Shown one piece after another: positions 5,352 through 6,263 of a stretch of 7,404 bases of DNA. The notes below the pieces were generated by a model, which saw nothing but the letters and a program-made list of their open reading frames with translations, was not told the DNA's origin and did no database searches. The DNA comes from Candidatus Woesearchaeota archaeon (GTDB lineage Archaea; Nanobdellota; Nanobdellia; Nanobdellales; Nanobdellaceae), in the NCBI GenBank assembly GCA_964468425.1, contig CAYXSZ010000011.1, positions 1 through 7,404 of the forward strand. Direction: 5' to 3'. How positions within the stretch are numbered: the first letter of the stretch is position 1; each line of letters starts with the position of its first letter. The position numbers and the translations under genes were made by a program.

Positions 5352-6230
5352 ATGAAGGTGCATCTCGTCGCGTTCGACTCCTTTTCGACTCGTTCTATGG
5401 CGACTTTTGTTGAAACTGATATCAGAGTCTTATTAGACCCGTCGATCTCGATCTCTCCAAAAAGATACGGGCTTCCTCCTCACGATCTGGAGCTAAATGC
5501 CTTGGAGTCTGGAAAACAAAGAATAATTGACTTAATAAAGCGATCAGACGTTCTAGTAATCACTCATTATCACTGGGATCACTGTCCTCATCCAGAATCG
5601 GAAATGATCTCATCTATTCGCGGAAAAACACTAATAGTTAAGGATTACGCGCGTTCAATAAACAAGTCGCAAAGCGAGAGAGGAAAGCACTTTTTATCAA
5701 AGGTAAAAAGTCGTAACGAAATACTAATTGGAGATAACAAGGAATTCGAGTTTAGAAACACTTATATAAGAATTTCTAGACCGGTTTGGCACGGAGAACC
5801 TGGATCAAAGCTTGGATACGTGTTGATGGTTTATCTAGAGCACAAGAAAGATTCGATACTATTTGCTTCGGACATTCAAGGAGTTTTGAGCAATGATACA
5901 TTCGAAGAGATAGTTTCGTTTGATCCAAAAACAATTATAATGTCCGGTCCTGCCACTTACCACTACTTTTGGAAAGACGAAGCTACGCGAAGATCCAACG
6001 AATACTTGAAAAGAATAATGGAAAAGACTCAAGTTGAAACGATAGTTATCGATCATCACCTAACGAGAGACATAAATTACTTGGATAAAATTAAAGATCT
6101 AATACTGTTCGGAGAGCAATATAAAACGTCGATAAAAACCGCTGCTGAATTTATGAACAAGGAAAATCTCCTGCTAGAGGCTAGAAGAAGAGAACTTTAC
6201 AAGGCTGTGCCCCGCCCATCGTACCGATGA
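5352..6230 (+). CDS. Metallo-beta-lactamase-fold hydrolase, resembling the archaeal UPF0282/COG2248 type
   Basis: 292 aa. The canonical MBL motif HxHxDH is present as HYHWDH, preceded by a beta-strand/Asp segment (VLLDPSISISP) and followed by later His/Asp residues (WHGEPGS, ASDIQG, IDHH). The last ~8 codons overlap the H/ACA sRNA candidate on the opposite strand. Confidence 0.65.
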   Translation: MKVHLVAFDSFSTRSMATFVETDIRVLLDPSISISPKRYGLPPHDLELNALESGKQRIIDLIKRSDVLVITHYHWDHCPHPESEMISSIRGKTLIVKDYARSINKSQSERGKHFLSKVKSRNEILIGDNKEFEFRNTYIRISRPVWHGEPGSKLGYVLMVYLEHKKDSILFASDIQGVLSNDTFEEIVSFDPKTIIMSGPATYHYFWKDEATRRSNEYLKRIMEKTQVETIVIDHHLTRDINYLDKIKDLILFGEQYKTSIKTAAEFMNKENLLLEARRRELYKAVPRPSYR

Positions 6231-6263
6231 TCATCGTTTTCACATCGGCTCGTCCAGCGGGGC
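6206..6263 (-). ncRNA. Single-hairpin archaeal H/ACA box guide sRNA (pseudouridylation guide) with a K-loop
   Basis: The minus strand reads 5'-GCCCCGC|UGGACGAG|CCGAUG|UGAAAACGAUGAU|CAUCGG|UACGAUGG|GCGGGGC|ACA-3'.
- The lower stem is 7 bp and all G-C.
- The internal loop (pocket) is symmetric, 8 x 8 nt.
- The upper stem is 6 bp.
- The apical loop starts UGA and ends GAU, which allows tandem sheared G.A/A.G pairs plus a U.U pair. This is an L7Ae-type K-loop, and the 3' side reads GAUGA.
- The ACA box follows the lower stem immediately.
- The top of the pocket is 15 nt from the ACA, within the canonical 14-16 nt.

The element is a G+C-rich island in A/T-rich sequence. On the plus strand there is neither an ACA nor any GA pairs. 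Confidence 0.65.

Follow-up and report, generated by a model that had tools for sequence, protein, structure and literature searches.

Archaeal box H/ACA guide RNAs are built to a narrow set of measures. The target U and the ANA box are 14–15 nucleotides (nt) apart, with a short helix separating the pocket from the K-motif (Muller et al. 2008, PMC2377435). In productive guides the pocket-closing pair and the second G.A pair span a stack of ten layers, the lower stem measures 7–9 base pairs (bp), and the distance to the ANA box is again 14–15 nt (Toffano-Nioche et al. 2015, PMC4652768). Among Nanoarchaeota, a single H/ACA small RNA (sRNA) was reported for N. equitans, a 159-nt RNA between NEQ389 and NEQ392 that is expressed, has an A/T promoter box 26 nt upstream of its start, and is accompanied by a T-stretch (Randau 2012, PMC3491384); a literature search returned no paper on H/ACA RNAs of Nanopusillus. 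Here we describe an element at positions 6206–6263 on the minus strand of a 7,404-nt stretch of DNA, called the window throughout (contig CAYXSZ010000011.1 of assembly GCA_964468425.1, Candidatus Woesearchaeota archaeon), at the 3' end of a convergent gene for an MBL-fold hydrolase. To judge from its sequence and that of its relatives, it very probably encodes, in an uncultured hyperthermophilic nanoarchaeon, a genuine H/ACA guide sRNA of the archaeal single-hairpin kind.

The related loci discussed below are contigs retrieved for homologs of the MBL protein. They fall into four lineages: the window with contigs L001 and L002, L003 to L005, L006 to L008, and L009 with L010. In the three lineages other than that of the window, whose MBL proteins are 52–66% identical to the window's, the element again stands at the 3' end of the MBL gene and on the same strand. 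We refer to these copies as L003, L006 and L009.

Architecture, strand and conservation of the element

Read on the minus strand from 6263 to 6206, the 58 nt are GCCCCGC-UGGACGAG-CCGAUG-UGAAAACGAUGAU-CAUCGG-UACGAUGG-GCGGGGC-ACA. The original prediction had recognized a complete H/ACA layout in them, and every part that it listed is present:

6257–6263, minus strand: 5' strand of the lower stem, GCCCCGC, pairing with 6209–6215; the sRNA probably starts at its first nucleotide
6249–6256, minus strand: 5' arm of the pocket, UGGACGAG; its last G probably pairs with U6223 to close the upper stem, and its first U probably pairs with G6216
6243–6248, minus strand: 5' strand of the upper stem, CCGAUG, assigned from folding and from pair changes in the orthologs
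6230–6242, minus strand: apical K-loop UGA-AAACGAU-GAU (UGAAAACGAUGAU), with a U.U pair and the tandem sheared pairs G.A and A.G
6224–6229, minus strand: 3' strand of the upper stem, CAUCGG, whose complement includes part of the MBL stop codon
6216–6223, minus strand: 3' arm of the pocket, UACGAUGG
6209–6215, minus strand: 3' strand of the lower stem, GCGGGGC
6206–6208, minus strand: ACA box, directly 3' of the lower stem

The putative single-hairpin H/ACA gene would extend from about 6263 to 6203. Counted without any G.U closure, the lower stem has 7 bp and the upper stem 6 bp, the internal loop between them is 8x8, the apical loop is 13 nt long, and the ACA lies 15 nt from the top of the pocket. 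Most likely, each stem gains one more pair, the upper a conserved closing G.U and the lower a U.G (U-A in L003); with these additions the stems measure 7 and 8 bp, the pocket shrinks to about 6x6, and the ACA distance in the window copy becomes 14 nt. The K-loop is D-box-like on its 5' side (GUGA) and C-box-like on its 3' side (AUGAUCA). This is the polarity expected of such a loop, with a D'-like GUGA 5' and a C'-like AUGAUC 3', and the upper stem continuing the non-canonical stem. The element also stands out in composition, with a G+C content of 0.58–0.62 against 0.37 for the contig of the window, and of about 0.6 within contigs of 0.25–0.37 in the orthologs.

Do the predicted folds agree with this layout? 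Folding had been proposed as a check, and the minimum free energy (MFE) structure of the minus strand indeed recovers both stems, at −31.1 kcal/mol (z = −4.8; 0 of 200 shuffles equally stable). In the window copy, the fold predicted at 37 °C contains a few isolated pairs within the pocket, which is open at 80 °C. Among the orthologs, the prediction at 80 °C gives an open 6x6 pocket in three, while that of L006 is largely closed. The plus strand folds as well, with an MFE of −25.2 kcal/mol (z = −3.25). Across the four orthologs, however, seven cells of the structure hold G.U pairs: the closing pair in all four copies, upper-stem pair 4 in L003 and L006, and lower-stem pair 1 in L006. Because each of these would be a C.A mismatch on the plus strand, the minus strand is the functional one.

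The spacing follows the published measures. With the G.U closure, ten layers separate the pocket from the second G.A in all four orthologs despite their differing stack sequences, the closing pair and the ACA are 14 nt apart (15 nt in L006), and the lower stem has 7–8 bp in every copy, within the 7–9 bp on record. We cast this into a strict descriptor: a lower stem of at least 7 bp, an ACA 14–16 nt from the closing pair (16 nt being the upper limit used for the ANA-box distance), 9–10 layers to the second G.A and a loop of 3–10 nt. It matched three of the four copies and no other site on either strand of 283 kb of nanoarchaeal DNA; the L009 copy was missed solely through the limit that the descriptor sets on G.U pairs in the lower stem. 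No match occurred in 20 dinucleotide shuffles (about 5.6 Mb). The element is far from chance.

Compensatory changes in the stems had been suggested as a further check, and the three other lineages provide them, with covarying stems, invariant ACA and GA/GA, and arms that hardly vary:

L003 to L005, MBL protein 66% identical to the window's: ACCCCGC UGGACGAG CCGGCGC GAUUUAAUGA GCGUCGG UACGAUGA GCGGGGU ACA
L006 to L008, MBL protein 54% identical to the window's: GCCCCGC UGGACGAG CCGGUG UGAGAAAUGAU CAUCGG UUUCGAUGG GCGGGGU ACA
L009 and L010, MBL protein 52% identical to the window's: UCCCCGC UUGACGAG CCGGUG UGAUUUAUGAA CACCGG UACGAUGG GCGGGGA ACA

Between lineages the element is 79–90% identical, compared with 66–70% for the MBL coding DNA, and a covariance model built from three copies recovers the fourth at 73.6 bits. 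The first pair of the lower stem is G-C, A-U, G.U or U-A depending on the lineage; in the upper stem, pair 4 is A-U, G.U or G-C and pair 5 is U-A or C-G, and the pair beside the tandem G.A is U.U, C-G or U-A. Altogether 96.7% of stem cells are paired, and three pairs have changed on both sides. When the 3' partner was slid by 1–3 columns as a control, at most one double-change pair remained and pairing dropped to 32–53%. RNAalifold independently yields both stems, together with the G.U at columns 16–43 and the U.G or U-A at columns 9–50.

The unpaired parts behave differently from the stems. The 5' arm UGGACGAG is invariant in three of the four orthologs, L009 differing at position 2. The CGAUG of the 3' arm is common to all four, L003 ending in A and L006 having UUU instead of UA, so that the arms are constant apart from three changes at their edges. 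Both GA dinucleotides are invariant in every copy, while the loop between them varies in sequence and in length (5–7 nt). The ACA is likewise invariant, and the bases that follow it differ (GCC, UUU, UUA and UUA). Fixed arms, GA/GA and ACA combined with compensating stems form the pattern of constraint that would be expected of a guide RNA.

How such an RNA might work can be sketched from the established archaeal H/ACA ribonucleoprotein (RNP) model. The sRNA would be transcribed from its own A/T-rich promoter, for which one candidate lies upstream:

6288–6295, minus strand: possible archaeal TATA box AATAAAAA, A/T-rich and placed at −25 to −32 relative to the first base of the stem

Similar A/T boxes occur at about −21 to −33 in each of the four orthologs, with runs of pyrimidine or T after the ACA. 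L7Ae presumably binds the apical K-loop, and Cbf5-Nop10-Gar1 would hold the ACA box, the lower stem and the pocket. A substrate RNA could then base-pair with both arms of the pocket so as to leave a U-N unpaired between the two helices, the U of which Cbf5 would isomerize to pseudouridine. As for the protein partners within the phylum, N. equitans has a Cbf5 homolog, and L7Ae is encoded in the related contig L014.

Substrate and competing explanations

Several observations weigh against a guide function. Scanning with covariance models had been proposed as a check, and it gave no support: no Rfam family reaches its gathering score, and a scan of the whole window gave no match at the locus. The comparative evidence comes from four distinct orthologs, with covariation resting on 3–4 pairs, and the element is absent within 10 kb on either side of the MBL gene in six other nanoarchaeal lineages, where gene order is different. 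The promoter-like box does not discriminate, as A+T makes up about 80% of the flanks. In part the pocket arms can pair with each other (C-G, G-C and G.U), and the pocket of L006 stays largely closed even at 80 °C. To these come the searches for a bipartite target. In the 16S rRNA of Nanopusillus and Nanobsidianus the best contiguous pairing is 5–8 bp and in the E. coli 16S and 23S rRNAs 5–9 bp, both equal to the shuffle background, and about 140 kb of related protein-coding loci with their tRNAs contained no convincing target.

The Rfam result can be qualified. A narrow scan of 91 nt against 4227 families brought up two, both of them H/ACA RNAs, both on the minus strand and both far below threshold: hairpin 3 of HgcG/Pab40 (RF00064; 12.1 bits against a threshold of 77), which gives the best alignment and has its lower stem, pocket, GAUGA and ACA all in register, and the Tetrahymena H/ACA small nucleolar RNA TtnuHACA28 (20 bits against 130). 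Matches below threshold indicate resemblance, not membership. Since the H/ACA families in Rfam are guide-specific, such scores exclude those particular families and not the H/ACA class.

Which RNA could the arms recognize? The original prediction had derived a bipartite target around U-N. Its register, of nine layers, gives 5'-CCAUCGUA-U-N-CUCGUCCA-3'; the probable G.U closure favours the ten-layer register, for which the predicted substrate is 5'-(C)CAUCGU-U-N-UCGUC(C)-3'. The 16S genes searched were those of N. acidilobi, Nanobsidianus stetteri and three Nanopusillus metagenome-assembled genomes, retrieved through a Nanoarchaeota fluorescence in situ hybridization probe sequence (PMC4935971). 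A mismatch-tolerant scan, the only kind applied to it, detected no target in E. coli 5S rRNA, and the N. equitans rRNA fragments in the Randau supplement contain the complement of neither arm. These rRNA negatives apply to the 16S rRNAs of relatives, to the rRNAs of E. coli and to the N. equitans fragments, and they include neither the organism's own rRNAs nor any nanoarchaeal 23S rRNA.

Individual candidate sites were set aside as well. Helix 34 of E. coli 16S rRNA (GCAUGGC-UG-UCGUCAG) resembles the predicted substrate; the Nanopusillus sequence at that place does not fit. Near the 5' end of 16S rRNA, six nucleotides of the site GGCCAUCGCUAUCUCCCUCCGAC (CCAUCG) match the 3' arm. Against this site are mismatches in its 3' half and the need for a bulge, and the 6-mer varies even within Nanopusillus (DS.bin.8 has CCAUCA), in contrast to the invariant guide arm. 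The pseudouridine at position 27 in P. abyssi is presumably a different U from the one at this site, if the 16S alignment is as we take it to be. For pseudouridine 27, its position and its proximity to the central pseudoknot are given in PMC2377435. U35 and U55 of tRNA-Tyr fail, by reasoning only, on the fixed positions of their loops.

Because the arms are invariant across divergent lineages and yet nothing fits the relatives' 16S rRNA, the analysis points weakly to a substrate in 23S rRNA. The majority of archaeal H/ACA sites are located in 23S rRNA, in P. abyssi 14 of the 21 predicted ones (PMC2377435). An orphan guide is an unlikely variant of this account; its substrate would be a tRNA, another sRNA, an mRNA or a nanoarchaeon-specific rRNA segment, and it might in addition act in cis as an antisense RNA where it overlaps the MBL gene.

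Among the explanations that dispense with guiding altogether, the one that survives best, improbable as we judge it, is a K-loop-capped hairpin that binds L7Ae, and perhaps Cbf5, in some other capacity: as a chaperone of rRNA folding, as a regulatory L7Ae element or as a degenerating former guide. The absence of a target from the stable RNAs searched would suit such an RNA, as would arms that can pair with each other and nearly close the loop in L006; moreover, binding of L7Ae to non-guide K-turn RNAs is known from archaea (PMC5539422). Yet the target searches did not extend to the organism's own rRNAs, and the mismatched positions of the loop (A/A and G/G) are as invariant as the pairable ones while the stems drift with compensation, which points to pairing in trans. 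The ACA and the spacings of 14–15 nt and ten layers are moreover exact, and they are relevant only to the geometry of the Cbf5 active site. A guide that pairs with a separate RNA remains the reading we prefer.

The position of the element raises the question of whether it acts on its neighbour, the MBL gene:

5352–6230, plus strand: MBL-fold hydrolase gene, convergent to the element, with its TGA at 6228–6230 and its last 25 nt overlapping the sRNA gene

The residues VPRPSYR of the protein are read from the complement of the ACA, the 3' strand of the lower stem, the 3' arm and the 3' strand of the upper stem. A cis-antisense regulator that pairs with the 3' end of the MBL mRNA would be perfectly complementary to the last 25 nt of the coding sequence in the window and to 32 nt in L003. 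We nevertheless regard this as very unlikely, as the RNA is equally conserved without any overlap in L009 (0 nt) and L006 (where the stop codon precedes it by 90 nt), the protein tails that enter the overlap are of unrelated sequence, and the features specific to H/ACA RNAs are left unexplained. The conserved core of the MBL protein ends in ...LLEARRKELY and is followed by KAVPRPSYR, KMYPAHRTDAH, NNI or GIK. Of the overlap described in the original prediction, the 25 nt with the stop codon are real, and the mutual constraint attributed to both genes is not borne out. The MBL frame simply continues within the RNA gene up to the first stop it encounters; the tail is shaped by the RNA and exerts no constraint on it, and the overlap is incidental.

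Least probable of all is an element of the MBL mRNA itself, a plus-strand 3'-end hairpin acting as terminator or stabilizer: the plus strand does fold, the hairpin always follows the MBL gene and a crude terminator scan marks short plus-strand sub-hairpins, but the seven G.U cells turn into C.A there, the structure is less stable by 6 kcal/mol, the ACA and GA motifs would be conserved to no purpose, and no run of U comes after it. The distance of the element from the stop codon is not fixed either, varying between an overlap of 32 nt and a gap of 90 nt, and archaeal termination needs no hairpin.

The locus and its genomic neighbourhood

The window is a nanoarchaeal contig of hydrothermal-vent origin. 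Its MBL protein recurs unchanged, together with a nearly identical intergenic region, in two metagenome contigs, L002, from a hydrothermal-vent metagenome, and L001 (ENA assembly ERZ23491583). Where the closest MBL homologs carry a name, they are labelled Nanoarchaeota, Nanopusillaceae or Candidatus Nanopusillus, and the neighbouring genes are archaeal: SecF, archease, an ASCH-domain protein, a RecJ/Cdc45-like DHH protein, ribosomal protein S15 and a SepSecS-family enzyme dependent on pyridoxal phosphate. The MBL-fold family itself (window 5352–6230, homologs P0001–P0045) is widespread in archaea and matches the MBL models of Pfam only weakly (E about 0.005–0.009).

Beyond the loci already described, two short related contigs either lack the element or end too early to include it. 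A scan of metagenome contigs with a degenerate pattern of the sRNA found the L009 and L005 contigs again, together with chance matches from G+C-rich soil genomes among the matches listed. Viral contigs gave no match to the sRNA, to a 16S signature or to an N. equitans 23S signature.

A second G+C-rich island (6296–6376) was considered as a second hairpin of the sRNA and rejected: neither of its strands folds more stably than shuffled sequence, and the orthologous loci have no counterpart. Between the window (6331–6360) and L001 (7449–7478) five substitutions fall within about 30 nt of this island and a 1-nt indel lies about 20 nt downstream of them, the rest of a 330-nt stretch being identical. 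In L006, the long intergenic region that follows the sRNA (10862–11400) contains an inverted repeat (11224–11242 and 11308–11326, 84% complementary) and two copies of CCTTTAGA[AG][GT]GGAGA, one of which adjoins the 3' end of the sRNA.

Guide RNA candidates of the C/D type are frequent in the related nanoarchaeal loci. In the window, positions 1971–2019 of the minus strand, between the archease and ASCH genes, show a complete C/D box layout in the order AUGAUGA, 12 nt, CCGA, UAA, AUGACGA, 12 nt, CUGA; the best that Rfam offers is sR3 with only 14 bits. Its D guide ACCGAACUGCAG is complementary to CUGCAGUUCGGU, which resembles what we take to be the universal 23S segment ACAGUUCGGU. Further genes of this appearance are located in L003 (8122–8171, plus strand), L009 (16489–16537 and 7827–7876, both minus strand) and L137 (2557–2606, plus strand), the last with a guide, AAGGAGGUGAUA, that is complementary to the 3' end of 16S rRNA, as is N. 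equitans sRNA13. The window also contains two open reading frames on its minus strand, one of 242 amino acids without a Pfam match (2612–3340) and one of 55 amino acids whose called product has no Pfam family on record (3341–3508). Several related contigs have called genes of similar size (242–250 and 55–59 amino acids) in the corresponding places.

Relation to known guide RNAs

If our reading is right, what would the element add? Nanoarchaeota have tiny, heavily reduced genomes in which RNA-guided rRNA modification has been retained, and an extra pseudouridylation site would be maintained by symbionts under strong genome reduction. The overlap with the MBL gene illustrates how, in compact genomes, a protein tail may extend over an RNA gene and leave the RNA unconstrained. 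The analysis also yields a covariance model with which the RNA can be sought in other genomes. The view of how the H/ACA RNP works is left unchanged.

The closest structural parallels are euryarchaeal. Pab21, Pab91, Pab160/Pf9, motif 3 of Pab40 (HgcG) and Afu-46/Afu-190 from Pyrococcus and Archaeoglobus have the same layout of lower stem, pocket, upper stem, K-loop or K-turn and ACA, and they too stack the upper stem on tandem G.A pairs, with ten layers and an ACA at 14–15 nt. Their lower stems measure 7–9 bp, so that the 7–8 bp of the element lie at the short end. The host differs, a nanoarchaeon as opposed to a euryarchaeon, and the guide arms are unrelated to those of the Pyrococcus and Archaeoglobus RNAs, for which reason the target should differ as well.

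The apex invites comparison with a second class. The C'/D'-type K-loop of C/D sRNAs, a motif bound by L7Ae, has a D'-like and a C'-like side connected by a short joining loop, and the apex of the element, 5'-GUGA...AUGAUC-3', shows this same arrangement. In contrast to C/D sRNAs, the element has neither C/D guide regions nor terminal C/D boxes; here the motif caps a hairpin of the H/ACA type.

The nearest relative by phylum is the H/ACA sRNA of N. equitans, with which the element shares G+C-rich hairpins, a GA-containing K-motif and the ACA. That RNA has two hairpins with internal K-turns and other pockets, whereas the element is a single hairpin with an apical K-loop, and between the two no sequence can be aligned beyond a short ACGAG in a different register. 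With only the N. equitans RNA described so far for Nanoarchaeota, the element would be the second H/ACA sRNA of the phylum, unrelated to the first and conserved in several uncultured lineages from vents and hot springs.

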